DNA of 64,000 bases from Thermodesulfobacteriota bacterium (GCA_965215275.1 OZ244044.1:1568001-1632000), one strand, 5' to 3'. Counted from the stretch's first letter, positions 42,511 through 59,913 are shown. Program-made: numbers and translations. Notes: generated from the letters alone by a model not told the origin.

Positions 42511-45500
42511 ATGGTCATAGCTGCAAAAGGAGAGAGCAGATTAGAAGACCAGTTATCTGAATGCAGAGATATCAGTGCAGACACGGAAGACCCGTTATAC
42601 GGATGTCAGTGGCATCTGAAGAACACGGGGCAGTTTATTTATTCAGGAAAGGAAATAACGGCAGGAGAAGATATAAACATAGAGGGTGTGTGGAACGAAG
42701 ACGTATACGGTTCTGGAATTAACGTAGCAGTTGTAAGTGATGGTATCGACCTTTCACATGAGGACCTTTCTGCAAACGTTGATCCTGGACTGAGCTATAA
42801 CTATTCCGAGAGCGTTGACCTTTCCGACAGTTCATCCTTTACCGGAACACGAGCAGCAGGAGTAATAGCAGCTACTGGATATAACGGACTGGGAGTAAGA
42901 GGAGTTGCACCCGGTGCAAGTATATACAGTAATGAGTTAACTGGTGATAACAGGGAAGTTGCCGCAGGGGATGCAATGGTCCGTAATAAGGAAATAACAG
43001 CAGTATCTGTTAACGACTGGGGACCGGAAGATAAATATTCTCTTGCTCAGGCATCAACTGTCTGGGAAGAAGGATTGGAACTTGGAATAAGTAAAGGGTT
43101 TTATGGTAAAGGTGTGTTTTACGTCCGGGGAGCAGGGGACGGGCATGAAAGAGGAGATCAGGCTAATTTTAATGAATATTCCAGCTATTACGGAGTAACA
43201 GCCGTTTGTTCAACGGACGGTTATGGAAAAAAGAGTATTTTTTCAGAAGAGGGAGTAAATCTATGGGTATGTGCACCTGGTTCTGATATTGTAACCACAG
43301 ATAACAACAACGATTACGTTGTAACTTCCGGAACTGTTCTATCAGCTTCACAGGCTGGAGGAGTGGCAGCACTGCTGAGAGAGATAAATGTAGATCTGAG
43401 CTGGAGGGATATAAAGCTTATACTTGCGGGTTCAGCACGGCAGAACGATTTTTCTGACGTGAGCTGGGAGACTGGAGCTGTTAAATACGGTTCTGATACG
43501 GAAAGATATAAATATAATCCTAAGTATGGTTTTGGCGTGGTAGACGCAGAAGCAGCCGCAGAACTTGCAAAAAGCTGGAAAGGCGTTGGTGAAATGAGGA
43601 CCGTTACAGCTTCTTCAGATAATGAACTGACAATCCCTGATAGAGATGGAGAAGCAGATGGGGTCCTTGTCTCCAGACTTATGATACCGGACCTGGAGGT
43701 AACATTTACGGAATTCGTTGAGGTAGAACTTGTTTTTTCTCATGACCGCTTACAGGACCTTGATATACAGATAACCTCTCCTTCCGGAACAACGTCTGAG
43801 CTTGTAAGGGAGTTTTCAGTTGAGGAAGAAGACGCTGAGATCAGTTATGTAAGAAGAACACATCGTTTCGGGTCGGCTAAGCACCTCGGAGAAGACCCTT
43901 CCGGAGAATGGATTCTCAATATAGCCGATACTGCTTCCGGAGATGAAGAAGATGGAGAAGAAGTGGGGACCTTACACTCCTGGAGCATTAAGGTATACGG
44001 GAATAAGAAGGGGGATACCGCTGCAGACCTTGCTAAGGAGATAACTCCTAAGGCTTTAACCTTCGGTGGTGCGACAGTTCAGGATCAGGTGTACAGAGCA
44101 GGAACTCAGATAACACCATTAGTACTGCCTGAGGCGACCGGGGCAGAAGGAATAACGTACAGTATAAGACCTGCTCCACCTGCTGGACTGAATTATAACG
44201 ATAATACCAGAACTATAAGCGGAACACCAACTGCTTCGCAGTCTAATATCCGTTATCAACATATTGCCAGAGACAAAGATGGGAAGACGACGAGTGTAGC
44301 GTTCCATATCAGGGTAAGGTTCCGTAACTCCACAACGCCGAGTTTCAGAGAGACTATCCCGGATCAGAACTATGTAACGGGGAGATCAATAACGCCACTG
44401 GTGTTCCCTCGTGCAACAGGAGGGGATGGTCAGCTAAGTTACAGTTTTGACGGCACTTTAAATAACTTACCAGGTGGATTGAGCCTTACCAGCAATCCGT
44501 TTAGGATAATTGGAACACCAAGTAATGCGGGGACAAGTACCTGGCAATGGACCGCTACTGACGCAGACGGGGATACGGCTACACTTGAGTTCAGGATAAG
44601 GATAAGAGCTGCAGCTGACGTTCCGGACTTCGGCGATACGCAGGTGAGGGATCAGACGTTTGGTAACGGCAGAACAATAAGTCTGGGAATGCCTGTGGCA
44701 GATGGAGGTAATGGAACTTTAAATTACAGTATAACTCCTGCCTTGCCTAATGGATTGACCTATACCAGTAACAACCGACAGATAAATGGAACGATCAACG
44801 TCTCTGGACAACTTCCTGTAACTACTACTTATACCTACAAGGTAACTGACTCTGATACAGATACTGATGACGGTGATTCTGATACTCTGACTTTCTCTTT
44901 TACGATAGAAGCTAATTCAGTGCCAAACTTCGGCAGTCAGACGGTAGAGGGTCAGGTGTATGCTACTGGGCAACAGGTAACGTTGACTCTGCCTCTTGCA
45001 ACGGGAGGGAATGGAAATTTAAGTTACAGTATAATCGGTGCTCTACCTTCCGGATTGAGTTTTAACCCAACCACCCGGGAGATAAGTGGAACACCAACTA
45101 CCGTAAAGTCTGCGAGGACTTATACATATAGAGCAAGGGACGATGATCTGGACACGGATACTATCACCTTCTCTATTACGATAACGGCCCTGTCCTTTGA
45201 CGGGCAGGTACCTTCTTCTCCTGTTTTGTACTCAGCAGAAAGACGAATAACACCAGTAACGCTGCCTGTGGCAACGGGAGGAGGTACTGCTCCATATACT
45301 TACAGTTTAACCCCTCGTTTACCTGATGGATTGAGTTTTAACCCAACCACCCGGGTTATAAGTGGAACACCGACTGCTGCGACGCCTTTGAATACTTATA
45401 CGTATACCGTTACAGACAGTAACGGAGTTACGGTGGAGATGACGTTCGATATTGCTGTAAGAGCACACTTTTCAGGCCTTACGATACAAAGTAAGGTGTA

Positions 45501-46488
45501 TACAGTCGGGACGGCAGTAATGGAAATGCTGCCTGAGGCAACTGGACATAATGGAACGGTAACATACAGTTTAACTCCTGAATTACCTTCCGGACTGGAT
45601 TTTACCCCTGCTACACGAGTGATAAGCGGAAGACCGACTGCTACACAGAATACGAGGCTTTATACGTATACTGATACTACCGGTACAGGTGGACCTGCTC
45701 GAACTTTGGTGTTCCATATCACGGTAAGAACAGAACCCAACACAATGCCGACCTTCGGCAGTGAAACTATAGATAATAAGGTGTATATAAACGGAGAAGC
45801 AGTAAATGAAACACTGCCTGAAGCAACGTCAGGGAATGCACCATTAACTTACAGCTTAAGTACTAATTTAGCAGGAGGTCGGCTAATTAACGGATTAAGT
45901 TTTAACAGAAACACCAGAGTATTAAGTGGAACACCTGATCTCAATCCAGTTCCACTTCCTGTAACTGTGAATCATACATATAAAGTAAGAGACAATGATG
46001 GAGATACAGCAGAGATAACGTTCAGTATAACAGTAGAAGAAGACAGCGAACCGGACTTCAGCGGTGTGACAATACCAGATCGTGTGTACACGGGTAGAAC
46101 AATAGAGCTGCCAGAGGCAGCGGGAGGGAATTTACCGGTTACATACAGTATAACGCCTGGTTTACCAGCGGGATTGAGTTTTAACGGTAGTACCAGAAGG
46201 ATAAGTGGGACACCCAGGAGTGCATCGACAAGAACTTACACGTATACGGCAACGGACAGGAATGGAGATATGGACACATTGGATTTCATGTTCAGTGTAG
46301 AGGTTACTTCTTCTCCACCACCACCAAATCCAAGACCAGCACCAGATACTGAAGCTGGTGGAGGAGGATGTGCGGTCTCAGAGCAGAGCAGCGTTGCTTC
46401 TGATATTCTCGGAGTAATGACATGTCTGATACTTATACCTGTATCTGTAACGATAAGAAGAAAGAGAAGATCTCATATAAAGACGTAG
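42511..46488 (+). CDS. Paralogous degenerate S8/kexin-like + P domain + about 8 Ig-like repeats + sorting tail
   Basis: N- and C-termini nearly identical to 11915-14983; GGGGCAVSEQ...RRKRR tail. Confidence 0.85.
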   Translation: MVIAAKGESRLEDQLSECRDISADTEDPLYGCQWHLKNTGQFIYSGKEITAGEDINIEGVWNEDVYGSGINVAVVSDGIDLSHEDLSANVDPGLSYNYSESVDLSDSSSFTGTRAAGVIAATGYNGLGVRGVAPGASIYSNELTGDNREVAAGDAMVRNKEITAVSVNDWGPEDKYSLAQASTVWEEGLELGISKGFYGKGVFYVRGAGDGHERGDQANFNEYSSYYGVTAVCSTDGYGKKSIFSEEGVNLWVCAPGSDIVTTDNNNDYVVTSGTVLSASQAGGVAALLREINVDLSWRDIKLILAGSARQNDFSDVSWETGAVKYGSDTERYKYNPKYGFGVVDAEAAAELAKSWKGVGEMRTVTASSDNELTIPDRDGEADGVLVSRLMIPDLEVTFTEFVEVELVFSHDRLQDLDIQITSPSGTTSELVREFSVEEEDAEISYVRRTHRFGSAKHLGEDPSGEWILNIADTASGDEEDGEEVGTLHSWSIKVYGNKKGDTAADLAKEITPKALTFGGATVQDQVYRAGTQITPLVLPEATGAEGITYSIRPAPPAGLNYNDNTRTISGTPTASQSNIRYQHIARDKDGKTTSVAFHIRVRFRNSTTPSFRETIPDQNYVTGRSITPLVFPRATGGDGQLSYSFDGTLNNLPGGLSLTSNPFRIIGTPSNAGTSTWQWTATDADGDTATLEFRIRIRAAADVPDFGDTQVRDQTFGNGRTISLGMPVADGGNGTLNYSITPALPNGLTYTSNNRQINGTINVSGQLPVTTTYTYKVTDSDTDTDDGDSDTLTFSFTIEANSVPNFGSQTVEGQVYATGQQVTLTLPLATGGNGNLSYSIIGALPSGLSFNPTTREISGTPTTVKSARTYTYRARDDDLDTDTITFSITITALSFDGQVPSSPVLYSAERRITPVTLPVATGGGTAPYTYSLTPRLPDGLSFNPTTRVISGTPTAATPLNTYTYTVTDSNGVTVEMTFDIAVRAHFSGLTIQSKVYTVGTAVMEMLPEATGHNGTVTYSLTPELPSGLDFTPATRVISGRPTATQNTRLYTYTDTTGTGGPARTLVFHITVRTEPNTMPTFGSETIDNKVYINGEAVNETLPEATSGNAPLTYSLSTNLAGGRLINGLSFNRNTRVLSGTPDLNPVPLPVTVNHTYKVRDNDGDTAEITFSITVEEDSEPDFSGVTIPDRVYTGRTIELPEAAGGNLPVTYSITPGLPAGLSFNGSTRRISGTPRSASTRTYTYTATDRNGDMDTLDFMFSVEVTSSPPPPNPRPAPDTEAGGGGCAVSEQSSVASDILGVMTCLILIPVSVTIRRKRRSHIKT

Positions 46489-46509
46489 CAATGAGGTCCT
46501 TTCAAAGGC

Positions 46510-46575
46510 ATTGAACTGACTGATATCTTTCCCGTCAGAATACCTGCTGGCTGCTTACGGAAAAAGAAACGGTAT
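46510..46575 (+). repeat. Dispersed repeat copy C (downstream of S8-like paralog 2)
   Basis: ATTGAACTGACTGATATCTTTCCCGTCAGAATACCTGCTGGCTGCTTACGGAAAAAGAAACGGTAT. Confidence 0.75.
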
Positions 46576-46792
46576 CTCTCCGTTAAAGTCCTGTTTTTTT
46601 GTCTTCAATGTTCTTATTACCTCAAAGGTCTGACTACAAGGTCTTTCACCCGATATGAATATGCGCCTGTTAAAAACGTCTTTTTTATTCATTTGGAGTA
46701 GTTCCTGTATAATTCCCTAATATTTTTAATTAGCTTCTATGGTTTATACAGGAATAGCTGTTATACTATATAAACTTGTAACGGAGAAAACA

Positions 46793-47287
46793 ATGCCTCT
46801 TTACGAATATGAATGCGATAGCTGTATGCAGAATTACAATGACGATATAGATGTCCTCGTTCAGAAACTGAACAAGACGAATGCGTCCAGGGTCATAAAG
46901 AAAAATCCTAATATTTCCTTTATTGAGGTTAAGGAAGAAGGAAAGAACGGTTTTTCGATCGGTAAGAAAAACACACCGAGCATACGAAGGTTCATACATA
47001 AGATAAATAAAAAGATACTGTATATGGAACTTAAAAACTTTCGCTTTAGTGAACTTATAACAGAAAAGGGTGATGAAAAAGATCTTGTGTGTCCGCTGTG
47101 CAAGGACGGCAGATCCATCCGAAGGGTCTTTTCAACGTTCAAGGCAATATTTGATGATAAGAACAAAAGAGCTCCCAGACCCGGAGACGATATAAAGTTC
47201 CACATGGACTATAAGGTCCAGAAAGATGAAGAGATGAGAAATGACTGGGTGGGACAGGACCATCTGAATCAGTACTTCAACAGATAG
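46793..47287 (+). CDS. FmdB-like zinc-ribbon protein with large insertion
   Basis: MPLYEYECDSC...CPLC...RRVFS; GGAG RBS before ATG 46793. Confidence 0.7.
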   Translation: MPLYEYECDSCMQNYNDDIDVLVQKLNKTNASRVIKKNPNISFIEVKEEGKNGFSIGKKNTPSIRRFIHKINKKILYMELKNFRFSELITEKGDEKDLVCPLCKDGRSIRRVFSTFKAIFDDKNKRAPRPGDDIKFHMDYKVQKDEEMRNDWVGQDHLNQYFNR

Positions 47288-47297
47288 GAAAAAAACA

Positions 47298-47780
47298 ATG
47301 CCTCTTTACGAGTTTGAATGTATAAAATGCAGGAACAATGTTGAGAGTTCCTTAAAGGTCTTAAAAAAGAAAAGAGATAAGAAAACTGTCGCAGGCCTTA
47401 TTGATAAACATAAGAACATTAATGCCATTGAGGTCGTGGACCTGAATAAGAACAAGATCATTGCCAGGCACGGCAAAAGAGGTGACGGTTCAGTTTTTAT
47501 GGATTTTTATCAGGATGAAGGCGAGGTGCTTGTACTCGTTAATATCAGACCTTACAGATTCTCCGAGTTGATCTACGAACCGGAGGATGAGAAAAAAATA
47601 AAATGCCGCTGTGGTGAAAAAAAGAAAGTGGAAAAAGTAATATCAGGATTTGCATTTACAAAGGATCTTTCCACTAATATGCCAAAGCCCGACCTGTCCA
47701 ATCTGCCCGCTTCGGTCAGGGACAGGACGTACATTGGGGATTATATAGAGGAAAAGGACAGACCAAAGAAGAACAGATAG
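47298..47780 (+). CDS. Second FmdB-like zinc-ribbon protein with large insertion
   Basis: MPLYEFECIKC...CRCG...EKVIS. Confidence 0.7.
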   Translation: MPLYEFECIKCRNNVESSLKVLKKKRDKKTVAGLIDKHKNINAIEVVDLNKNKIIARHGKRGDGSVFMDFYQDEGEVLVLVNIRPYRFSELIYEPEDEKKIKCRCGEKKKVEKVISGFAFTKDLSTNMPKPDLSNLPASVRDRTYIGDYIEEKDRPKKNR

Positions 47781-47792
47781 CAGGTCAGTCCT

Positions 47793-48443
47793 CTAATCCA
47801 TGGTGTAATCGGTTTTCTTTTTACCAAATCTTCTTTCCAGTTCTGTGTTTATGTCCTGCGGACCCAGTTCCAGCTCAGAAAGCAGTACAAGTGAGTGAAA
47901 CCATAGATCGGTGACCTCGTATATAAGTTCTTTTTTGCTCCTGTTCTTGCCTGCTATTATTGTCTCTCCTGCTTCTTCTCCGATCTTTTTCAATATTTTA
48001 TCCATACCGTCACTGAAGAGGCTGCTTACGTAAGATCCCTTGACGGGGTTCTTCTTTCTATCCTCTATGACCTTAAAAACTTTATATATTGCAGGGTCGG
48101 TAAACACGGGAGACAGTTCCTTAGTGGAGTCTGTCCGGGTGTGAAAACAGCTTTGTTCTCCTGTGTGACAGGCCACCCTTGTCTGATCGACCATGATCAG
48201 CAACGTGTCCTTATCACAATCTATGTAGATCTGTCTGACTTTCTGAACGTTCCCTGACTCTTCACCCTTTTTCCATATTTTTTTTCTGGATCTGCTCCAA
48301 AAATGCGTAAAACCCGTTTCAATGGTCAGTTTAACTGTCTCAGCGTTTGCATAAGCGAGCATGAGAACCTGTCCAGTTGTATTATCCTGTATTATTGTGG
48401 GGATTAGCCCATCTTTGTTGAATTTCAGTTCGTTAAGGTCCAT
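47793..48443 (-). CDS. hisIE: Bifunctional phosphoribosyl-AMP cyclohydrolase / phosphoribosyl-ATP pyrophosphatase
   Basis: [35 protein letters not shown]. Confidence 0.96.
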
Positions 48444-48479
48444 GCCTTCTCCCTTTATAAAATGAATACTTTTAAGATA

Positions 48480-48611
48480 GGGAATTATATACTGAATTAG
48501 ACATGATCAGCATACTGTTCTGCAAGCAGGTTTCCTCTAACCCTGTAACCTTTTGGCACTAACGAGTACTCAGCTTGCATCGGGAGACTTTCGTCCTTAT
48601 TCCCACCCGAT
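48480..48611 (-). ncRNA. Predicted omegaRNA scaffold of E1
   Basis: ATCGGG/CCCGAT, GAC-GAAA-GTC and TGCAAGC/GCTTGCA stems shared with E2 and E3. Confidence 0.6.
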
Positions 48612-49954
48612 AAAGAGGATAAACCTCTTTTAAGCATGTTCTTCGCAGCATTTGTATCAGCATGTTCCGTATGAGCACAGAAAATACCGACGCATTTAAA
48701 CAGCTCTCCTTTTCTATTTTCTTTATCTATCCATCCACAACGAGAACAGGTTTGTGACGTGTATTGAGCAGGTATCTTATGCAACTTGCCACCAGTGCTT
48801 AAAACCTTGTAATCAAGCTGATTAACAACCTTACCCAATTGCTGTTCTATTAAGGACCTGTTTAATCCTGATTTCTGCTTAATATTCTTACCAGGATCTT
48901 CCACAGTTCCTTTTGCAGATTTAGTCATATTCTTTAATTTTAAATCTTCCGCCATAATGAAATTATGCTTCCTTGAAAGTTCAGTAGTTATTTCGTGTAT
49001 CATGTAATGTTCTCTTTCTGCGACCCTTGCATATTCTTTTGCAAGTATTTGAACTTTCTTCTTTCTGCTGGCAGAACCTTTTACAGCTCTTGAAAGAATC
49101 TTTTGCTTTCTTTTAAGTTCTTTTCTATCCGTTTTTATACCTTTATAAAATGATCCATCTGATAAAGCGATCCTGTTATTTACTCCAAGATCTATCCCTA
49201 TCGGTCTGTCCATACCTCTGTCAACCCCAACTATCGCTTCATAAATAAACTGAATTTCTACTCTTAAAGCCGTTTGCACTATCCTTATATATCTTGTTCC
49301 TTCAGGTATCCTTCCCTTGAAGGAAACCCTGCCAATTCCTTTTATATACAACGAAGTCCTTCTTTCCTGCTTTCTGATCTTGCTTAACAGACGAGTTTCA
49401 AACGACCTGACCTTTCTGGAACTCTTCTTAAATCTCGGATGTCCACCTCGACTGAAAAACCTGTCATACGCACTATCTAATCTTTTTAAAACGGACAATT
49501 GAATCTGACGAAGAACTTTATTAAAAACAGGTTCTTCTTCTCTTATTTCAGTTAATGATTTTGATTGATCCTCATAACTGACCGACTTCTTTTTTAAATC
49601 TTCTTCAGGTAACATCTTCCAGTTTAAAGGATCATCACAAGGTTGAATGTCACTTTTAACACTATTCAACGCTTTATAAACAATGTTCAAATTCTTAACG
49701 GTATTTCCCTTATTATAAGAAATACCCGACTTCCAGTGTGGATAGAAATAAACCCTTAATCTATCTTCTGACAAACCCCATCTCTTCAGCTTCTTGTATT
49801 TTTCATATGCTTCCTTTCTTTCTTCTAAAGCACAGTTATACAAATAAGTTAATTGATCTAAAGTCCTGTCCAGACCTTCATGAGCAGATATATTCAACCC
49901 AGCCGCTCTACGGTCTGTTCTCATCTGTTTTATAATTTTAGTTTCACTATCCAT
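48497..49954 (-). CDS. tnpB: RNA-guided endonuclease TnpB (485 aa)
   Basis: RuvC motifs GIDLG, AEDLK, HADTNAA; zinc finger CSRC...CVGIFC. Confidence 0.93.
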
Positions 49955-50122
49955 CGTCTACAACACAACAACCGATCTATTAACTGCTTTCAAATTCGTC
50001 TCCTGTCTAATTAAGTATATAATTCCCTTAAGATATTATAATTGGGAATAATATACTTTAGTAAACAAAAGACAGGCAAATAGCTTTGATAGTGCTGTAA
50101 AATTAGGGAATTATATATAGAT

Positions 50123-51577
50123 ATGGATAGTGAAGGAAGTGTGATCAGAAAGACGAGAGTAGACCTCAGGGCGGTTAAGTTGGATCCGTCTGCTCATAAG
50201 AAACTGGAATCTATGTTAAACCAGCTTACCTATCTTTATAACCGAGCTCGTGAAGAAAGGATAAGATCATATGATAAATATGAGAAACTGATGAAATGGG
50301 GTTTATCAGAAAAGAGATTTAAGACGTATTTCTATCCCCACTGGAAGTCTGGACTTTCTTATAATAAAGGTAATACAGTTAAACATATAGACAAGGTATA
50401 TATAGCTCTTAACAGGGTTAGAAGTGAAGTCCGACCTTGTAACGACCCGTTAAACTGGAGAGAGTTATCAGAAAAAGAAATAGGAAAGAAGTCGATCAGT
50501 TACGAAGATCAGGCAAGATCACTGACGGAAATAAGGAACGACCTTTTACTGTCTGATGAGTTTAGTAAGGTTGACGCTCAAGCGCAACAGCGGACGTTAC
50601 AAAGACTGGATAAGGCTTATAAAGAATATCTAAAAGGGATACGTGGTCGTCCGAGATATAAGAACAGTAGCAGAAAGATAAAAAGTTTTGAAACTTACCA
50701 ATGGAGTAGAGTTAAGAAACAAGACAGAAGAACTTCCTTGTCCGTAAAAGGAGCAGGCAGGATGAGTTTCAAAGGCAGGATACCGGAAGGAACTAAATAC
50801 ATAAGGATAGTAAGAACTGCTTTAAGAGTAGAGATACAGTTTGTATATGAAACAGTTGCAGGAGTGGACAGAGGGTCAGACAGACCGATAGGGATAGATC
50901 TCGGAGTGAAGAACAGAATTACCTTATCGGATGGAACTTTCTATAAAGGAACAGAAATAGACAGGAAGGAACTTAAAAGAAAGCAAAGAGCAATAAGCAG
51001 AGCTGAAAAAGGTTCTAACAACAGAAACAAGAAGAAAACAGCTTATGCCAAAGAACGTGCAAGGACCACTGAAAGGGAACATAATAAAATACATGAATTA
51101 ACTACAGGGATAGTAAAGGGTCATGGTAATCATTTTATAGTAGAAGATCTGAAGTTAAAGAACATGACAAAGTCCGCTAAGGGGACCGTGAAAGATCCTG
51201 GCAAGAAAGTAAAGCAGAAATCGGGATTGAACAGGTCTATACAGGAGCAGCAATTGGGAAAGGTCATTAGTCAGCTTACTTACAAGGTTGAGAGCACTGG
51301 AGGTAAGATAATAAGAGTTCCATCCCGATACACAAGCCAGACCTGTTCTGCATGCGGATATGCAGCTAAAAAGAACAGAAAAGGAGAGTTATTTAAGTGC
51401 ATGTCCTGTGGTTATAAAGGCCATGCTGACTTAAACGCAGCTAATAACGTTCTCAAAAGAGGTTTATTCTTTTTGTCGGGTGGGAATAAGGACGAGAGTC
51501 TCCCGGTGCAAGCTGGGAACGTTATATCAAAAGAGAACGGGGTCAGAGGGACTCTGCTTGCAGAACAGTATATTTAG
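50123..51577 (+). CDS. tnpB: RNA-guided endonuclease TnpB (484 aa)
   Basis: GIDLG, VEDLK, HADLNAA; CSAC...CMSC. Confidence 0.93.
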   Translation: MDSEGSVIRKTRVDLRAVKLDPSAHKKLESMLNQLTYLYNRAREERIRSYDKYEKLMKWGLSEKRFKTYFYPHWKSGLSYNKGNTVKHIDKVYIALNRVRSEVRPCNDPLNWRELSEKEIGKKSISYEDQARSLTEIRNDLLLSDEFSKVDAQAQQRTLQRLDKAYKEYLKGIRGRPRYKNSSRKIKSFETYQWSRVKKQDRRTSLSVKGAGRMSFKGRIPEGTKYIRIVRTALRVEIQFVYETVAGVDRGSDRPIGIDLGVKNRITLSDGTFYKGTEIDRKELKRKQRAISRAEKGSNNRNKKKTAYAKERARTTEREHNKIHELTTGIVKGHGNHFIVEDLKLKNMTKSAKGTVKDPGKKVKQKSGLNRSIQEQQLGKVISQLTYKVESTGGKIIRVPSRYTSQTCSACGYAAKKNRKGELFKCMSCGYKGHADLNAANNVLKRGLFFLSGGNKDESLPVQAGNVISKENGVRGTLLAEQYI

Positions 51578-51604
51578 TATTTGTTTACTAAATGTATAAT
51601 TCCC
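51475..51604 (+). ncRNA. Predicted omegaRNA scaffold of E2
   Basis: TCGGG-TGGGAATAAG-GACGAGAGTC-TCCCGG, TGCAAGC...GCTTGCA, GAACAGTAT, terminal hairpin. Confidence 0.6.
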
Positions 51605-51656
51605 TTATAGTTTGTGTATCATATAAAAGAAATTAAATTATATTTCAGGAGTCGTT

Positions 51657-51866
51657 ATGGCAAGAGTAACCATAGAAGATTGTTTGGAAAAAGTGGAAAA
51701 CCGCTTTGCACTTTCGGTAGCAGCTATGAAAAGGGCAAAACAGGTGGTTAATGGTGCAATGCCTCTGGCATCGGAAAAAGATAATAAACACGTCGTTATT
51801 GCTCTCAGGGAGATAGCAGAAGGGAAAGTCAACGTGATCTATCCTGATGCACCTGGAAAATATTAG
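51657..51866 (+). CDS. rpoZ: RNA polymerase omega subunit
   Basis: [19 protein letters not shown]...ALREIAEG. Confidence 0.97.
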
Positions 51867-51890
51867 AGCTACTTACCTGATCTATATAAG

Positions 51891-53867
51891 ATGTACCTTC
51901 TAGGTATCGACACGGGCGGGACCTTTACCGACTTTGTGCTTTATGACGGAAAAGATTATAAGGTCCATAAGATCTCCTCAACGCCTGATGACCCTTCCAC
52001 GGCTATATGTGACGGGGTTAATTACTTCAATGAAGTTTCGTTTCGGTATCTGACCTTAGTTCATGGGACAACCGTTGCAACGAACACCCTCCTTGAACGA
52101 AAAGGTGCCAGGGTACTGCTGTTGACCACTAAGGGTTTTGAAGACGTTATTGAGATCGGCAGACAGAACCGCGGTAAACTATACGATCTTTTCTGGACGA
52201 AAAAACCTGCCTTAGTACCGAAACGGGACAGGATAGGTATATCCGAAAGGGTTAATTCCAAAGGTATGGTCTTAAAGGAATTAGACGGTGATGAAGTACG
52301 CACGCTTATGCAAAGTTCAAACTTTGAGGAATTTGAAGCGGTTGCCGTCTGCTTTATTAACTCTTACGTTAATCCTGTACATGAGATCAAAGTTCAGAAC
52401 GTTCTAAGTTCCCTGGATATCCCGGTTTCAATATCGTACGAGGTTATACCTGAATTCAGGGAATATGAACGAACTTCAACCACCGTGGTGAATTCATATC
52501 TCATTCCCAAGGTCAGGGGATATATGCATTCCCTGAACAAAAAACTAAAAGGGGCGGGTATTTACGTTATGCAGTCGAACGGAGGCGTTATAACCCCCGA
52601 GCAGGCGGCAAATGAACCGGTAAAGGTAATTGCCTCGGGTCCGGCTGGCGGAGTGGTCGGGGCTTACAAGATCGCCCGTCAGACAGGGATCGATAAGGTA
52701 ATAACTTACGACATGGGGGGAACTTCCACGGACCTTTCCGTGTGTGATGGTGAATTGAAGTTTACAACGGAGACCGTAATTGATGATGTCCCGATAAAGA
52801 TCCCAATGATGGACATTCTTACCATCGGATCGGGTGGAGGGTCAATTGCGTACGCGGATTCCGGAGGGGTATTGAAAGTAGGGCCTGAAAGTGCAGGTGC
52901 AGACCCGGGACCAGCGTGCTATGGAAAGGGAAAATATCCTACGGTAACCGATGCAAACCTTATGCTTGGAAGAATGCAGGCAGAGAATTTTCTGGGTGGC
53001 AGGATGAAGGTCGACCCCAAGCTGTCAGAAAGTTCCATCAAGACCTTAAACAACGGTTTTGGAATTGATCCCCTTAAACTGGCCGAGATGATAATAAAAG
53101 TTGCAAATTCCAACATGGAACGTGCTGTTAAGGTCATTTCGGTCGAGAAAGGATACGACCCCAGGGAGTTCTCGCTCATCAGTTTCGGTGGGGCAGGGGG
53201 ATTACATGCCTGCGAATTGGCAAGGAGCATCGGCCTTAAAAGAGTGATATTTCCGGTTAACCCGGGAGTTCTTTCTGCGCTGGGTATGCTGTTTGCCGAT
53301 TCGTTCAAAGATTACAGTAAAGGGTTTTTTCTGAACTGTAAGGACGCGGACCTCAGCGTACTTGAACTCCAGTATGGTGAACTGGAGCAGAAAGCGGTCA
53401 GGGATATTCAAGGCGTGGAACAAAACGCTTCATGTTCAAAGGAAGATACAGAGTTTTTAAGGTCAATGGACGTCCGATATAAAAGACAGTCACATGAGCT
53501 GACAATTCCGTACAGCCGTGACTTCATAGATGATTTTCATAAAAAGCATCTCAAAAGGTACGGTTTTAACGGCGTTGATAACGCTGTTGAAATAGTGGCG
53601 TTAAGGGTCCGTGCCGTGATCAGCCGTTCCGTGTTCGAGCTGCCTGAGCTGAAAACAAAAAGATCGGAAATTACAGGAACTGGTTCTCTGGTCTATATAA
53701 ATGGTGAATGGACCGATATAGTTCGTTATGACAGGAGCCGGTTTTATAACGGCTTTGTTTTTAAAGGGCCTTCGATCATTAACGAGGATACGTCAACTAT
53801 TTTCATACCTGAAGGTTTCAGATGCGTTGTGGACCGGTTTGGAAATATAGTTTCAGAAGGGTGTTGA
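51891..53867 (+). CDS. Hydantoinase/oxoprolinase subunit A
   Basis: IDTGGTFTD, HGTTVATN, SGPAGG, DMGGTSTD, GPESAGADPGPACYG. Confidence 0.92.
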   Translation: MYLLGIDTGGTFTDFVLYDGKDYKVHKISSTPDDPSTAICDGVNYFNEVSFRYLTLVHGTTVATNTLLERKGARVLLLTTKGFEDVIEIGRQNRGKLYDLFWTKKPALVPKRDRIGISERVNSKGMVLKELDGDEVRTLMQSSNFEEFEAVAVCFINSYVNPVHEIKVQNVLSSLDIPVSISYEVIPEFREYERTSTTVVNSYLIPKVRGYMHSLNKKLKGAGIYVMQSNGGVITPEQAANEPVKVIASGPAGGVVGAYKIARQTGIDKVITYDMGGTSTDLSVCDGELKFTTETVIDDVPIKIPMMDILTIGSGGGSIAYADSGGVLKVGPESAGADPGPACYGKGKYPTVTDANLMLGRMQAENFLGGRMKVDPKLSESSIKTLNNGFGIDPLKLAEMIIKVANSNMERAVKVISVEKGYDPREFSLISFGGAGGLHACELARSIGLKRVIFPVNPGVLSALGMLFADSFKDYSKGFFLNCKDADLSVLELQYGELEQKAVRDIQGVEQNASCSKEDTEFLRSMDVRYKRQSHELTIPYSRDFIDDFHKKHLKRYGFNGVDNAVEIVALRVRAVISRSVFELPELKTKRSEITGTGSLVYINGEWTDIVRYDRSRFYNGFVFKGPSIINEDTSTIFIPEGFRCVVDRFGNIVSEGC

Positions 53868-53878
53868 GGTTTACCATA

Positions 53879-55186
53879 ATGTCCAAAAATATCATTATAG
53901 GTGGTGGTGTGACGGGGCTTGCCGCGGGTCTGACCTCAGACGTTAAGATATATGAAGCAAAACAGGTTCCCGGAGGTATCTGCTCGTCGTATTATATCCG
54001 TCCCGGTGATAAGCGACCTGAGGCTGCACAACCTGAAGATCAAGAAGCCTACAGGTTCGAGTTAGGTGGTGGACACTGGATCTTTGGTGGAAAGCCCAAA
54101 GTATTGGATTTTATAAGATCACTGACCCCGGTAAAAGAATATACAAGAAAGTCCTCGGTTTACTTCCCGGATACGGAGTTGTATGTTCCGTATCCAATTC
54201 AGAACAATTTGAGATACTTAGGTAAAGACGTGGCAGACAGGGTGTTAGCGGAGATCAGGAACTCTACTGATATGATACCAGACACTATGGAGCAGTGGCT
54301 TGAAAAAAGCTTCGGAAAGACACTTGTAAAGATGTTCTTTGGTCCGTTCCATGAGCTGTATACCGCGGGGCTCTGGACAAGGATCGCACCCCAGGACGCT
54401 TATAAATCTCCCGTGAACGTTGAAGCGGTTAAAAAAGGTGCTTATGGAGACAGGACGGACGCTGTGGGTTACAACGTTAAGTATCTGTACCCTTCAGAGG
54501 GACTTGATGTCCTTGCAGGTAAAATGGCGGGAAGATGTAATATCTCATACGACAAGAAGGTTGAGGAAATAAATCTGGATAAAAAAGAAGTACTTTTTTC
54601 AGATGGGTCAGGAGACAGATACGATAGACTTTTATCAACTCTGCCGCTGAACAAGGCACTGGACTGTTCAGGTCTTACCGTTGATGAATACCGTGATGAC
54701 TACACCTCCGTCCTGGTCCTTAATATCGGTGCTACAAGAGGTGACAGATGTCCTGATGATCACTGGATATACGTGCCTGACAGCAGGTCCAAGTTCCATA
54801 GAGTTGGTTTTTACAGTAACGTTGACAGTTCTTTCCTGCCATTATCGTCCAGAAAGGATATGGACAGGGTCAGTATTTATGTTGAAAGGGCATTTCCAAA
54901 CGGCAGGAAGCCCTCTGACAGTGAGATAAGTTCTTATTCCGGATCAGTAGTTGATGAGTTAAAGGACTGGAAGTTCATTGATGAAGCTGAGACCGTTCAT
55001 CCAACCTGGATAGAGGTTGCCTATACCTGGTCAAAGCCGGGTTCAAGCTGGAGAATGAAAGCATTGAACCTTCTTGCGAAGCAGAACGTCGTTCAGGCAG
55101 GCAGATACGGCAGGTGGAAGTTTCAGGGGATCGCGGAGTCCCTGGAAGATGGTTTTATGGCCGGTAATGATCATCTCTTGTCATGA
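53879..55186 (+). CDS. FAD-dependent oxidoreductase (protoporphyrinogen oxidase / UDP-galactopyranose mutase-like)
   Basis: IIGGGVTGL, GGHW, GRYGRWKF; likely ATG at 53879. Confidence 0.8.
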   Translation: MSKNIIIGGGVTGLAAGLTSDVKIYEAKQVPGGICSSYYIRPGDKRPEAAQPEDQEAYRFELGGGHWIFGGKPKVLDFIRSLTPVKEYTRKSSVYFPDTELYVPYPIQNNLRYLGKDVADRVLAEIRNSTDMIPDTMEQWLEKSFGKTLVKMFFGPFHELYTAGLWTRIAPQDAYKSPVNVEAVKKGAYGDRTDAVGYNVKYLYPSEGLDVLAGKMAGRCNISYDKKVEEINLDKKEVLFSDGSGDRYDRLLSTLPLNKALDCSGLTVDEYRDDYTSVLVLNIGATRGDRCPDDHWIYVPDSRSKFHRVGFYSNVDSSFLPLSSRKDMDRVSIYVERAFPNGRKPSDSEISSYSGSVVDELKDWKFIDEAETVHPTWIEVAYTWSKPGSSWRMKALNLLAKQNVVQAGRYGRWKFQGIAESLEDGFMAGNDHLLS

Positions 55187-55201
55187 AGTACTCAAGGCTG
55201 A

Positions 55202-56272
55202 TCAGCAAGCTATTATTTCCATCATTCGTTCAACCCTGTTCTTTAAGCTGTGGTCTTTCTTTATTCTTTTATATGAAGCCATGGCTATCTCTTCTCTTTC
55301 TTTTTCGTTCTTTAGGTAGTATTGCACTTTATCTCTCAGTTCTTTTTTATCTTTAAAAGTTATGATCTCTTCTCCTATCCTGAAATAATCCCCTATACTT
55401 TTTTTATCGTCCACGATCTGGAACGTTTTTGACGCGGGGATCTCAAAGAGTCGGTAATTCCCCCCGCTGACCTCAAATTCCCGATGGATATTGACCCCTA
55501 TTTTAGCTGACTTCATCACTTTTATCAGATCGTCACCATATACCACGCCTCTGTAGTTTGATCCAAGGGGCGTTTGATGATCACTGAAGTTCCAGCTCCA
55601 TATACCCAGTCCCAGGTCGGAGATATGTTCTAAAAAATTTTTTCTCCTTTCATCGTACATTCCCGAGAAACAGATATTGACCTTGTTGTCTTTAATAAAG
55701 TCACTGTCAGGATTAATTGAGTCATAGTAGGAAACGCTGCATCCAAGTGGTAATGTCTGCGTGTTTGTGATATTAAGTTCCTCTTCGTAGTATTTAACGT
55801 ATGATCTGTCATAAATAAAAGTGTGGTCGCAGTTTTTGAGTATTTTGTGTACGCCAGGCGACACTTTTGACGGATGTAATCCGAGCCATGTCACCACTTT
55901 TATCCCTTCTTTTTTAAGGTTTTTTATTAAACTTGATAAGTTATAGGTATTTATAAGATATATGAACAGTACGTCGGGGTTGAAGTCCTTTACCTCTTCT
56001 GAGATCTGCTGTGACAGATACAGATCATTTGGGTAATCAGCGATGAACCCGAAGTGTTTTCTGAATGTAAGATACTCTTCACTAAAGCTGTTTCTTATCG
56101 TCCTGTCTTTTCTTAAATGGTCTAACAGGACTGGCATCTTTGTATCGGTGGTTTGCAGTACCTTTACTTCATGTCCCAGACCTGCTGCCTCCCGGGACAG
56201 ATGAACCATATATGTACTTATAAAGAACGTTGTATCGTCAAACGTGATGGGAGCCGCGAAAAGAATTTTCAT
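55202..56272 (-). CDS. CgeB-like GT-B glycosyltransferase
   Basis: NYRLFEIPA, YFRIGEEI, YYLKNEKEREEIA, HSLKNR. Confidence 0.8.
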   Translation of the reverse strand: MKILFAAPITFDDTTFFISTYMVHLSREAAGLGHEVKVLQTTDTKMPVLLDHLRKDRTIRNSFSEEYLTFRKHFGFIADYPNDLYLSQQISEEVKDFNPDVLFIYLINTYNLSSLIKNLKKEGIKVVTWLGLHPSKVSPGVHKILKNCDHTFIYDRSYVKYYEEELNITNTQTLPLGCSVSYYDSINPDSDFIKDNKVNICFSGMYDERRKNFLEHISDLGLGIWSWNFSDHQTPLGSNYRGVVYGDDLIKVMKSAKIGVNIHREFEVSGGNYRLFEIPASKTFQIVDDKKSIGDYFRIGEEIITFKDKKELRDKVQYYLKNEKEREEIAMASYKRIKKDHSLKNRVERMMEIIAC

Positions 56273-56457
56273 TAATTAACGTTGATCTCTTTCAGCTTTT
56301 TTTTTGTAAACAGGAAATACAGTCTTTCAAAAGCAACTAACAGATGGATGGTTATAAAAAAAGAGAGTGATAAGATGAACTTAAAACCATGTATGTATTT
56401 ATTTTTAGTGCTGCGACCTGAACGGTTCATATCCTTCATTATATGAATAGCAGACAA
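56272..56457 (-). pseudogene. Probable 3' remnant of a polysaccharide-locus gene
   Basis: Short ORF coupled to the CgeB-like gene and cut upstream by the element remnant. Confidence 0.4.
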
Positions 56458-56474
56458 GATCTTTTATAATATTA

Positions 56475-56636
56475 GGGAATAATATACTTTAGTAAACAAA
56501 AGACAAGCAAATAGCTTTGATAATACTGTAAAATTGGGGAATTATATATAAATATGAGAAACTGATAAAATGGGGTTTGTCAGAAAAAAAGGTTTAAGAC
56601 GTATTTCTACCCACACTGGAAGTCTGGGATTTCTTA
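56475..56636 (+). mobile_element. Decayed, internally deleted left-end copy of element E2
   Basis: Close match to 50044-50119 joined to the tnpB segment at about 50276-50360; no right TIR. Confidence 0.85.
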
Positions 56637-56686
56637 CCATATAGCTGTTAAGGTTAAAATTCTCATTGCAATGCTTTGATAATTAA

Positions 56687-56816
56687 GGGAATTATAAAGG
56701 AAAGTTGACAAACTTACCCATACTGTTCTGAGTGCAGAGTTCCTCTATCCCTGTTCTCTTTTGATCTGATACTCTTAGCACTCATCGGGAGTATTTCTAC
56801 CTTATTCCCACCCGAT
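56687..56816 (-). ncRNA. Predicted omegaRNA scaffold of E3
   Basis: GTA-GAAA-TAC and TGAGTGC/GCACTCA compensatory variants of the E1/E2 stems. Confidence 0.6.
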
Positions 56817-57937
56817 ATGAAGTCTCCTTCATTAAGAGTATTGATATTTTTACCTGCATTTATATCCCTGTTTTCTGAATAACCGCAATATATACAGTTA
56901 AATACTCTTTCAGACAGAGGCAGTTTTGGATTTATCTTTCCGCATTCAGAACAGGCTCTTGTTGTATAATGAGCTTTAACTAAAACCAGCTTGCCTCCAG
57001 CTATCTCGGCTTTGTAGTCAAGTTGATGTTTGATCTTACCCCATTGCTGTTCTGTTATGGATTTAGCAAGATGATGGTTCTTTACCATTCCTTGTATATT
57101 CAAATCCTCTAATTTTATATGATTACACTTCTTTACTATATTGGTAGTCATTCTGTGTATAGCGTTATTTTCACGATCGGTAGTTCGTTCCCATTCCTTT
57201 GCTAACAATAAAACTTTCTTCTTTCTGCTGTCAGAACCTTTTACCGCTCTTGAAACAATTCTCTGCTTTCTTTTCAGTTCCTTCCTGTCTATCCTGATAC
57301 CGGGAACTTTAGTTCCATCTGAAAAAGCTAATCTGTTTGTTATTCCAAGATCTATCCCTATGGAATTATCCAAAGGTCTCTTCTTCTCATTTGTAAACTC
57401 ACACAGAAACTGGAGCTTAATTCTTAACGAACTCCTGATTATTCTTATTATTGTTTTAGGTTGCTTTAATACAACTCCGTCAGGTATAGAACCTTTGAAG
57501 GATAATCTGCCTATTCCCTTAACAGTTAAATATGTTCTTCTGCCTATCTTCTCAATGTTTTTATAATTGTTTGTTTCAAAACTCCTTACAGGTCTGTTTG
57601 GACCTTTATATTTAGGTCTGCCAACCTTCCTTACCTTCTTGCCTGCTTTCTTGTTCCTTAAATAGTTCAAATACGGTCTATATGCATTATCCAGTCTTTC
57701 CAGAACGCTTCTTTGAGCTGTAACATTAAACTTTTCAAATTCCTTGTCTTGCTCTCGGACCTCAGTTAGTTCGTTAAACTGTTCGTATTTAGAGATAGTT
57801 CTTCCATACCAATCCCAGGATTTTAACCTATGGTACAAGGCACTGTTATACAGATCGGTAAGCTGATTTAAGAATTTATCCAGCCTTTTATGAAAACCAC
57901 TATCTGCCTTTACAGTTCTTGTAATCGTTCTAACCAT
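56714..57937 (-). CDS. tnpB: RNA-guided endonuclease TnpB (407 aa)
   Basis: GIDLG, LEDLN, NRDINAG; CSEC...CIYC. Confidence 0.94.
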   Translation of the reverse strand: MVRTITRTVKADSGFHKRLDKFLNQLTDLYNSALYHRLKSWDWYGRTISKYEQFNELTEVREQDKEFEKFNVTAQRSVLERLDNAYRPYLNYLRNKKAGKKVRKVGRPKYKGPNRPVRSFETNNYKNIEKIGRRTYLTVKGIGRLSFKGSIPDGVVLKQPKTIIRIIRSSLRIKLQFLCEFTNEKKRPLDNSIGIDLGITNRLAFSDGTKVPGIRIDRKELKRKQRIVSRAVKGSDSRKKKVLLLAKEWERTTDRENNAIHRMTTNIVKKCNHIKLEDLNIQGMVKNHHLAKSITEQQWGKIKHQLDYKAEIAGGKLVLVKAHYTTRACSECGKINPKLPLSERVFNCIYCGYSENRDINAGKNINTLNEGDFISGGNKVEILPMSAKSIRSKENRDRGTLHSEQYG

Positions 57938-58008
57938 TTAATAACATTACCTTTTTATATTCTGTTTGTCAATTTATTTTTGTCAACTTTTCTTTATAAT
58001 TCCCATAA

Positions 58009-58923
58009 TTAACAGTTTCTGGGTTCAAAACCGAGCAGCAGCCTGAAGCTCTCATACACCCGAACGTAATTAAGTAAAACACGAATAATAACAATTTTTA
58101 ATTTGTTACCGTTTCTTTTGATTTTTGGACTTACATAATTGTGATTTTTTAATGGTTTCCGGATATATGTGACAGGGAGTAAATTCGATAAGGTTAGACG
58201 AAACCAGAATAATGATGAATATCCCCTTTTTTTATAATAAAGATATTCTCCCCCGGTAATCCTTAAATTTTTTCTTATTAAGTCCTTTAAAGTATTATGT
58301 GCAGGATGCTTTACAATCACGTTTCTTCCATAAATGATCTTGGAGCCTGTGATAATAGCCCTGTCTCCCCATTCTCTGTCGCCGCCGCTTCTGAATGAAC
58401 CATCAAAAATTCCAACGTCTGATAGCGTGGATTTAGAGGTAAATAAATTTGCTGTTACAGAAAAATTTAACTTGTTAATAAATCTCTCCTGGTTGAACGC
58501 AAACAGCATTTCATATTGTTCAACTGCGTTCAGATGGTCCTTGTTTTTATATGTTAATTCGATCCTGCCACCAACAACGCCATAGTAGTTGAGTATTTTT
58601 AAATTGTTTACTCCCGTTTCTATCCAGTTCGGGTAGGGTATGCAATCTGAATCAGTGAAGGCAATAATACTTCCTTTTGCTTGTTGTAATCCTTTGTTTC
58701 TGGCGGCATAGGAACCGCTTTTTTGTTCTTTAAGCAGGATTATCTTGTATAATGATTTTAACTTGAGCAGTTTTTTCCAGTGAAATTCGCTTGAATCATT
58801 ATCAACAACTATTACTTCATACAGTCTTTTATCATAACTTTGATCGTTAAGTGACTTTAGGCACAGACCTAATCTGTCAGAGTCGTTCAAATGTGGAATT
58901 ATTACTGAAACAAATTTCTTCAT
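58009..58923 (-). CDS. GT2 glycosyltransferase
   Basis: VSVIIP, VVDNDS, AARNKG, FTDSDC. Confidence 0.9.
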   Translation of the reverse strand: MKKFVSVIIPHLNDSDRLGLCLKSLNDQSYDKRLYEVIVVDNDSSEFHWKKLLKLKSLYKIILLKEQKSGSYAARNKGLQQAKGSIIAFTDSDCIPYPNWIETGVNNLKILNYYGVVGGRIELTYKNKDHLNAVEQYEMLFAFNQERFINKLNFSVTANLFTSKSTLSDVGIFDGSFRSGGDREWGDRAIITGSKIIYGRNVIVKHPAHNTLKDLIRKNLRITGGEYLYYKKRGYSSLFWFRLTLSNLLPVTYIRKPLKNHNYVSPKIKRNGNKLKIVIIRVLLNYVRVYESFRLLLGFEPRNC

Positions 58924-59160
58924 AATGCGTTTTGAATCCCGGTAAATGTATTGCCATTTCGTCTGTTTCTGAGAGTTTGCTGGGAATTAAATACACAAGT
59001 TTAATATCTGATAAAAACCTTTTCATACTTTTGACCGGTCCTGTTATTGCTGTTTGTTACCTTCTGTCTGTTTTATATCACGGCTTGTGTTCAAGTCGTA
59101 AAAAGGATACAAACCCTTATCCATAATAGAAATGCTGCATTGCTGATAACCTTATGGGTT

Positions 59161-59913
59161 TTATGAGCTGATGCTTTGTTGATCTTCCGTTCCTGATTCT
59201 TCCACTCTTTCAATACTGCCCTTATTGATATAATAAACGCGGTCGGTCAACTGTATGAGCCTCTCAAGACTGTGACTGACTATAACAAATGTCTTTTTAT
59301 CGTTTTTCATTATCTGGTCTATCTTTAGCTCGCATTTACTGACAAAATATGCATCACCCACTGCCAATGTTTCATCCAGGAGAAAGATATCTACATCGCT
59401 GTGTATGGCAACTGAAAAACCTAACCTTGCGAGCATACCGGAAGAATATTTTTTCACGGGAGTGTCCAGGAATTTATTTTCCAGTTCCGAAAATCCCAGG
59501 ATCTGTTCTTCAAGGCTTTTTATCTTCTCCACCGACATGCCGAGTATTATACCGTTGATGTAAATGTTCTCTTTTCCTGTCAGGTCGGGATGAAATCCGA
59601 CGCCTAATGAGATTAACGGTGCCACTCTGCCTTTCACCATGACTTCACCCTTGGTTGGGGAGGTAACGTTGGCAAGGAGTTTTATGATCGTTGTTTTTCC
59701 TGAACCGTTTGGCCCGTAGATCCCGATCGATTCTCCCTCTTCAACCCTGATGTTAATATCTTTAAGCGCCCAGAACTCGCTGCTGTCTATCTCCCCTGTT
59801 TTCTTGCTGGAGAAAAGAAGTTCGAGTCTCTCTCGTAACGTGTTATGGTAGCCCTTTCCGATCGTAAATTTCTTCCAGACGTTTTTGATCTCTATGATGG
59901 TGTTAGATGACAT
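59161..59913 (-). CDS. wzt: Polysaccharide ABC exporter ATPase
   Basis: FWALKDI, GPNGSGKTT, YSSGMLARLGF, DETLAVGD. Confidence 0.92.
   Translation of the reverse strand: MSSNTIIEIKNVWKKFTIGKGYHNTLRERLELLFSSKKTGEIDSSEFWALKDINIRVEEGESIGIYGPNGSGKTTIIKLLANVTSPTKGEVMVKGRVAPLISLGVGFHPDLTGKENIYINGIILGMSVEKIKSLEEQILGFSELENKFLDTPVKKYSSGMLARLGFSVAIHSDVDIFLLDETLAVGDAYFVSKCELKIDQIMKNDKKTFVIVSHSLERLIQLTDRVYYINKGSIERVEESGTEDQQSISS

Follow-up and report, generated by a model that had tools for sequence, protein, structure and literature searches.

The closest structurally described counterpart of the system considered here is the TnpB-omegaRNA complex of ISDra2 (PDB 8H1J, 8BF8/8EXA). In the parts of the structural account that bear on the RNA (PMC10097598), the scaffold runs in order through stem 1 with the pseudoknot loop, stem 2, stem 4 and the pseudoknot strand before the guide begins; the loop strand reads GGAAU, and the scaffold overlaps the end of the ORF. 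One unpaired base separates the pseudoknot from the guide, and the TAM is read by Y52/S56 at -1, Q80 at -2 and K76 at -3. TnpB has also been described on DDE-type transposons, where branches DDE-1 to DDE-6 have inverted ends and solo tnpB genes are mobilised in trans (Altae-Tran et al. 2023, PMC10691335). The supplement of that paper describes a TA motif for DDE-5, located 8 bp upstream of where the element is predicted to end. IS1595 is not named as a partner in its main text and appears in one row of an HMM list in the supplement, and the available sections on the DDE branches describe neither an omegaRNA fold nor a pseudoknot and leave the motif unconnected to TAM residues.

A tested precedent for the absorption of flanking DNA into a scaffold is provided by IS607 TnpB, in which one flank base joins the scaffold (Yoon et al. 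2023, PMC10711439). In Fanzors, the TIR and the TSD lie in the scaffold, and part of the TAM comes from the 5' TSD (PMC10711439; review PMC13565253). As far as these accounts extend, the bases absorbed in IS607 and Fanzors are fixed by the transposase, with the whole TSD serving as scaffold, and Fanzor1 has lost its pseudoknot. Non-autonomous passenger elements of the IS1595 family form a further point of comparison, with GGGAATTATA-type TIRs, an 8-bp TSD and passenger genes.

Three tnpB elements, E1 to E3, are present in the window, the whole 64-kb stretch of DNA that was analysed. Their GGGAAU loop strand is similar to that of ISDra2, and both scaffolds overlap the ORF end; unlike ISDra2, they have neither a Y1 transposase nor hairpin ends and carry TIRs with an 8-bp TSD instead, their predicted TAM is not the target motif of the transposase, and one flank base is predicted to belong to the scaffold. 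The inverted terminal repeats and the position of the tnpB end near the element end are shared with the DDE-TnpBs, to the extent that these are described, and the TA motif of DDE-5, which also occurs at E2-type copies and in a distant TnpB group (group C, below), is probably the same phenomenon as the flank motif reported here. In contrast to IS607 and Fanzors, the TSD is variable with one base predicted to be absorbed, and a predicted pseudoknot is kept. They resemble other IS1595 passengers in their TIRs, TSD and passenger gene but differ in that the cargo is an RNA-guided nuclease whose RNA is predicted to use the TIR itself. No description of TnpB between IS1595 ends, of this fold or of the residue-TAM link was found in titles and abstracts outside subscription papers.

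Three tnpB-only elements with IS1595-type ends

In each of the three elements, tnpB is the sole long gene inside GGGAAT[AT]ATA-type inverted repeats bounded by an 8-bp TSD (Table 1), and no accessory gene was found. These TIRs are common to IS1595-transposase elements, for which an 8-bp TSD is a family feature, and E1-E3 encode no IS1595 DDE transposase of their own. The hallmarks of IS200/IS605 (a Y1 TnpA or hairpin ends, no TIR, no TSD) and of IS607 (GG ends, no TIR, no TSD) are not found in them, and NF038280 scores far under its cut-off. In the host genome (G000), elements with an IS1595-family transposase (28 PF12762 matches; also NF033547) end in identical TIR tips, and the single Y1 transposase match is weak and adjoins no tnpB copy. 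E1-E3 are therefore regarded as non-autonomous IS1595-type elements that likely depend for mobility on an IS1595 transposase acting in trans from another locus of the genome; their ends presumably represent an ISNwi1-like IS1595 subgroup. About 17 near-complete tnpB copies of the E1-E3 group, plus fragments, are held by G000; tnpB copies occupy many distinct sites with TSDs, and this genome contains intact transposase ORFs.

All three proteins pass the NCBIfam TnpB model NF040570 (174.8 bits for E2, cut-off 100) and keep the RuvC D/E/D residues and a zinc finger, of the C4 type in E2 (motifs GIDLG, [AVL]EDL, D.NA and CxxC). An insertion of ~68 aa in the N-terminal half of TnpB (window 50123-50450 and 49630-49954) is present in E1, E2 and one G000 subfamily and in no other aligned row. 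By profile and by fold, ISDra2 TnpB is the top natural PDB match to the E-type TnpBs; the AlphaFold model of E3 is mediocre (pLDDT 69, pTM 0.43) and served only for the fold search. E1 and E2 are inserted back to back, and their predicted TAMs share one palindromic AT step.

Table 1. Features of the three elements and their predicted omegaRNAs, in window coordinates.
Feature	Position	Strand	Remarks
E1, tnpB-only element	48480-50027	-	1548 bp; perfect 8-bp TSD
E2, tnpB-only element	50044-51604	+	1561 bp; IS1595-type TIR pair, TSD TTATAATT/TTATAGTT
E3, tnpB-only element	56687-58004	-	1318 bp; perfect TSD at 56679-56686 and 58005-58012
E1 tnpB	48497-49954	-	485 aa
E2 tnpB	50123-51577	+	484 aa; ORF end overlaps the omegaRNA
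E3 tnpB	56714-57937	-	407 aa
E1 omegaRNA scaffold (predicted)	48479-48610	-
E3 omegaRNA scaffold (predicted)	56686-56815	-
E2 stem 1	TCGGG 51476-51480 with CCCGG 51502-51506	+	97.7% of cells paired; encloses the pseudoknot strand
E2 pseudoknot 5' strand GGGAAT (predicted)	51482-51487	+	same register as ISDra2 -106 to -102, as described in PMC10097598
E2 GNRA hairpin	51491-51500	+	inside stem 1; dispensable
E2 stem 2	TGCAAGC 51507-51513 with GCTTGCA 51556-51562	+	variable inner region; 95.2% paired, 6/6 pairs changed on both sides
E2 stem 4	51568-51579 with 51586-51597	+	3' arm in the right TIR; 5/6 pairs change on both sides
E2 right TIR	51580-51604	+	last six bases ATTCCC (51599-51604) form the predicted pseudoknot 3' strand
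E2 right TSD	51605-51612	+	base 51605 would be the final scaffold base
Abutting left TSDs	E1 50028-50035; E2 50036-50043		E1 and E2 head to head
E1 guide (predicted)	48463-48478	-
E2 guide (predicted)	51606-51621	+	from TSD base 2, about 16 nt; the ISDra2 guide has 16 nt in the account of PMC10097598
E3 guide (predicted)	56670-56685	-
E1 TAM AAT (predicted)	50035-50037	-	based on 1 site
E2 TAM TAT (predicted)	50034-50036	+	based on 2 sites
E3 TAM TGT (predicted)	58012-58014	-	two flank bases and TSD base 1
Left-end relic, E2-type	56475-56658	+	truncated and internally deleted; next to the right flank of E3, whose right end is 28 bp away

A predicted omegaRNA completed by the terminal inverted repeat

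The original prediction described one fold shared by the last ~130 nt of E1-E3, and all of the motifs on which it drew are in place: a TCGGG/CCCG[AG] stem with GNRA hairpins GAC-GAAA-GTC, GAC-GAGA-GTC and GTA-GAAA-TAC, a second stem in the two versions TGCAAGC/GCTTGCA and TGAGTGC/GCACTCA, the arms ATTTAGTA/TACTAAAT of the last hairpin of E2, which use the inner TIR, the terminal ATTCCC and three quoted flanks. Each of the two motifs that had been termed invariant occurs three times in the 64-kb window, TGGGAATAAG at 51481+, 48596- and 56801- and GAACAGTAT at 51563+, 48512- and 56720-. Invariance holds within E1-E3 but not across the family, in which the GNRA hairpin is often missing and the loop reads GGGAA, GGGAC, GGGGA or GGGGT.

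Homologs were drawn from G000, one same-order genus (22 of 36 genomes), GTDB and metagenome contigs. With the pattern used, 123 right ends were picked up, representing 91 distinct sites; the tally covers pattern-matching loci only and includes eight ends corrected by hand. Among 35 representative ends, 92.3% of the 794 cells of stem 1, the pseudoknot, stem 2 and stem 4 pair, compared with 75.8% of cells in shuffles (0 of 500 reach the observed value) and 30-50% with slid partners, and 17 of the 23 scaffold pairs vary on both sides. RNAalifold, run unaided, recovered stems 1 and 2 and missed stem 4. Folding of single sequences constitutes weak evidence because its scores lie only modestly beyond those of shuffles (z of -2.84 for E2, -2.22 for E1 and -1.09 for E3).

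The 5' arm of stem 4 follows the TIR variants, so the last stem covaries with the TIR that supplies its other arm. Taken with the overlap of the ORF 3' end and the element end, and with a pseudoknot placed before the guide, the covariation supports a predicted structured omegaRNA of the TnpB kind; this assignment, already made in the original prediction, is in keeping with the stem order and pseudoknot position of ISDra2 in the available description (PMC10097598). A guide that starts after GAACAGTAT, inside the element, is rejected because the GTAT of this motif is the base of stem 4 (columns 105-108 with 138-141), where it pairs with the TIR with compensations. An Rfam search over positions 46000-60000 gave no match at E<=1, and a promoter and terminator scan returned 5 and 1 sites, respectively, the same as in shuffles.

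Predicted pairing between the loop and the TIR tip

Pairing of the stem 1 loop with the end of the TIR was counted over 89 distinct ends, with L161 and L228 left out. Loop positions 1 to 7 pair with the tip in 89, 89, 87, 84, 69, 52 and 6 of these ends. The first two pairs never vary, and changes on both sides occur at position 3 (A-U in L133), position 4 (G-C in L135 and L140/142/144) and position 5 (C-G in the G000 subfamily and in a second L135 element; U-G in L047 and L140/142/144). The pseudoknot alone is 87.5% paired; its 8 double-changed cells are equalled in 0 of 500 shuffles and its 4 changed pairs in 5 of 500, and the number of pair types, as high in 87 of 500 shuffles, is not significant. 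Positions 5 and 6 are unpaired in 20/89 and 37/89 ends, perfect-TSD copies included. As these copies tolerate a mismatch at position 5, the core of the pseudoknot comprises four or five pairs rather than six. The pairing of the GGGAAT loop with the ATTCCC tip is thus supported by compensatory changes, with the reservation that only four to five of its six pairs are conserved.

The loop motif is preserved across three reading frames, which argues for a constraint at the RNA level. Loss of the tip is found for the left GGG in 11/46 elements and for the right CCC in 2/46, the latter count being biased because right ends were found by pattern. Extension of the pseudoknot by TSD base 1 was considered and dropped, just 25 of 89 ends being able to pair there.

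Flanking bases and TAM-reading residues

Left ends were defined by TSD match, and the letters of the flank played no part in the definition. In the short-TnpB elements (~400 aa), a G stands directly 5' of the left TSD in 36/36 copies with a perfect TSD and in 42/43 with a near-perfect one; at two mismatches, where some TSD matches are spurious, the count is 46/53. On the mirror side, G is found in 5/36 and 8/43 cases, respectively. Transposase-carrying IS1595 controls have G before the left TSD in 3/18 cases (4/18 on either side) against a background of 21%, and TnpB-free IS1595 controls from G000 have it in 0/8. TG before the 8-mer was not seen at E3-type ends outside tnpB copies. The long-TnpB elements (E1, E2 and the G000 subfamily) have A at this position in 4/4 cases, two of which abut each other. 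The first base of the TSD is T in 18/18 G000 copies, compared with 3/8 G000 controls, and TSD bases 2-8 vary freely. A preference of the transposase as the source of the flank motif was discarded, the motif being absent from the 18 IS1595 controls.

When the residues that read the TAM are mapped by alignment to ISDra2 TnpB, the E-type proteins differ from ISDra2 in having Arg or Gln at 80 and Val, Ala or Ser at 76, and these residues are associated with the flank one position at a time. Cys at 56 accompanies A at TSD base 1 in 30/32 cases, and Tyr or Phe accompanies T in 31/33. Arg at 80 accompanies G before the left TSD in 40/40 (a count that omits L062, which has T, and the duplicate L239), and Gln accompanies A in 2/2. 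At the second base 5' of the TSD, T is found with Val or Ala at 76 in 21/26 cases and with Ser in 2/15. These counts overstate independence because the rows are kin, about ten lineages contributing to them. Residue 56 shows no association with TSD base 2 (p 0.19), which, together with the variability of bases 2-8, sets these elements apart from a Fanzor-like scaffold that contains the whole TSD. Three elements (L050, L053 and L247) have the TIR type of the T group yet carry Cys56 and A, so that the flank follows the protein. L316/L321 deviate by one register, the base taken as TSD base 1 facing the first loop G, and Arg80 is combined with A in L321.

The context of host genes also enters here, since in 11/17 Cys56 elements the TIR contains an in-frame ATG with a downstream host frame of at least 100 codons, and a start-codon context could itself favour TG|A at Cys56 sites. 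G is nevertheless found at 13/13 Tyr56 sites, not one of them preceded by a start codon opening a long frame, and A persists at Cys56 sites away from starts. Many elements of the related genus are inserted directly behind a host start codon (right ends of L013-L017, L022, L056, L057, L123, L177 and L178). The in-frame ATG of the right TIR re-creates the host N-terminus (e.g., MTIIP + KIAVIG), which would leave the insertion nearly silent.

As TSD base 1 behaves like TAM position -1, the guide likely starts at TSD base 2, and TSD base 1 would be both TAM -1 and the last base of the scaffold. The original prediction had the guide begin at the TSD and target element-free alleles. That the guide comes from the flank and matches such alleles is retained as a prediction; its likely start moves from base 1 to base 2 on account of the residue-TAM register.

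Proposed mechanism and alternative explanations

The reading preferred here, to which a probability of about two in three may be assigned, is that TnpB with a predicted omegaRNA resides between IS1595 ends and is moved in trans, and that the TIR completes stem 4 and the pseudoknot, with TSD base 2 as the first guide base. The tnpB transcript would be processed to an RNA ending ~16 nt past the TIR, which would supply half of stem 4 and the 3' strand of the pseudoknot. TSD base 1 would serve as the unpaired linker before the guide and, on the empty allele, as TAM -1. TnpB would cut that allele, on which TAM and guide match run contiguously. The filled locus would be spared because the right junction presents the C of the TIR at -2 and the left one offers a match to no more than 7 guide bases. 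With the filled copy as repair template, the insertion would then spread. Most fresh insertions should be TAM-less, since the transposase has no such preference, and the few that lie next to a TAM would spread by homing or drive and come to dominate. Drive or homing by IS605 elements has precedents in the available parts of two studies (PMC11870625; 10.1101/2023.03.14.532601). Given the frequency of the flanking G in near-perfect-TSD copies and its rarity in the transposase-carrying controls (42/43 versus 3/18), the nuclease rather than the transposase most likely determines which insertion sites persist.

The boundary between scaffold and guide could be drawn one base earlier, with a scaffold that stops exactly at the TIR, a guide that begins with TSD base 1, a TAM that lies wholly 5' of the TSD and a bias at TSD base 1 that reflects a first-guide-base or context preference. 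Three points favour this boundary: the terminal C falls at -1 when ISDra2 GGAAU/GUUCAA is aligned with GGGAAU/AUUCCC, the scaffolds of IS200/605 stop where the element does, and position -1 in L316/L321 would be taken by the base that faces the first loop G. This placement is nonetheless unlikely: the three flank positions fit the TAM-reading residues of ISDra2 only in the base-2 register, the uniform T at TSD base 1 of the G000 copies is not shared by the G000 controls, and, with the G-C end fully paired, only TSD base 1 could provide an unpaired linker. The bias might also arise at integration, if a TnpB ribonucleoprotein bound in cis steered the IS1595 transposase and the 8-bp TSD began on the last TAM base. 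This would suit a bias that is near absolute (42/43 against a background of 21%), as well as the persistence of unbiased TnpB-free IS1595 copies (28 transposase matches in G000) and the consideration that neutral TAM-less tnpB insertions might linger. Steering is rendered quite improbable by the exact register, for which selection accounts for free, by the TnpB-free elements of the same genome, whose lack of bias (G in 0/8) means that any steering must be strictly cis, and by the want of an accessory gene. If it did occur, an RNA-guided nuclease would be coupled to a DDE transposase in a minimal way that does not depend on the guide, and three residues would hold the target code.

That tnpB is a passive passenger, the motif being the preference of a dedicated transposase subfamily and the match of loop and tip inherited or coincidental, would agree with the many cargos of IS1595 elements in this genome (methyltransferases, TPR and ABC genes) and with the invariance of GGG and CCC. 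Such a passenger is very improbable given that the motif stands on one side only, varies with TnpB residues and not with TIR type, and is missing from controls with the same TIRs, and that the catalytic residues are intact and the stems covary.

Under the preferred reading, in which the nuclease filters insertions made in trans, these elements illustrate a route by which TnpB could settle on a transposon with a random AT-rich 8-mer target, the TIR tip keeping the pseudoknot and the TAM straddling the duplication. Since the transposase lacks such a preference, the flanks would record selection by the nuclease in nature, and a homing or drive model becomes testable without the common complication of a motif recognised by both TnpA and TnpB. 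The sites of insertion would also relate three REC residues to three TAM bases in a natural map, and compact nucleases with the short TAMs TGT, TGA, NGT and TAT are predicted.

Related TnpB groups and the origin of the loop-TIR match

The lineage L316/L321, found on Bosea plasmids, is the sister of the E1-E3 lineage in both protein trees (SH-aLRT 98; both are quick IQ-TREE runs) and consists of tnpB-only elements with TIRs and a TSD. Its loop, GGGCTA (GGGCUA), can pair with the end TAGCC(C). Model R1 did not detect L316/L321. In these elements, the right tip is conserved and the left tip varies, and the scaffold has an extra hairpin.

Two further, distant TnpB groups have TIRs like those of E1-E3. 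Group B (L025-L027, L032, L033, L036 and L040) has the same TIRs with TnpBs of ~28% identity; its loops read GGGAAT in 4/7 cases and share a GAAT core in 7/7, and TSD base 1 is A in 7/7 with a purine before it. Group C (L163-L165; G000:202435-203481, 714859-715815 and 1724052-1724867) has TnpBs of 26-30% identity, the same kind of TIR and a different scaffold, whose loop reads GGGAA in 3/3 cases; TA immediately precedes the TSD, again in 3/3. Both groups fall outside the E1-E3 clade in the tree, where a long-branch warning applies, and this position suggests at least two captures of TnpB under these TIRs. The row nearest to group B in both trees is L019 (G019:C4), which, like L020 (G027:C13), has CRISPR-like direct repeats downstream of a TnpB-like ORF.

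The claim that the scaffold has co-adapted to the TIR can be upheld for stem 4, whose tracking of TIR variants indicates co-adaptation, and less readily for the loop, which may have fitted the IS1595 TIR from the outset, as the pseudoknot strand GGAAU of ISDra2 implies. A prior fit between the TIR tip and an ancestral pseudoknot is plausible in view of this strand, of several IS605-type rows in which GGAAC loops occur with GTTCAC ends and of the tip-complementary loops of groups B and C. Polarising the loop by a TIR-free sister group was attempted and abandoned, as the nearest sister, L316/L321, has TIRs and the distant IS605-type rows have other scaffolds.

Host genome context

The omegaRNA covariance model gives 30 matches in G000 at E<=0.01. 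When predicted guides of 12 copies were compared with the rest of this genome, the 14-nt matches found (at most 1 mismatch) were scattered. Four DNA runs from a single study yielded no empty-allele joint, a result that proves nothing.

Decayed omegaRNA-like ends, at which no tnpB was detected, lie at G000:1484831, 494705, 1886844, 1976547, 522336, 292586, 1936282 and 794416, and two of these eight seem to be mini-elements of ~210-220 bp. IS1595-type ends also enclose other cargo at G000:17470-21955, 1002026-1005187 and 1812584-1815955, which, from sequence motifs, we take to be ABC/TPR genes, a cytosine methyltransferase with a partner ORF and a methyltransferase-HNH fusion. Elsewhere in the window, two paralogous proteins with subtilase, P-domain and Ig-repeat regions are encoded at 11915-14983 and 42511-46488 and are 83% alike over 1.9 kb.
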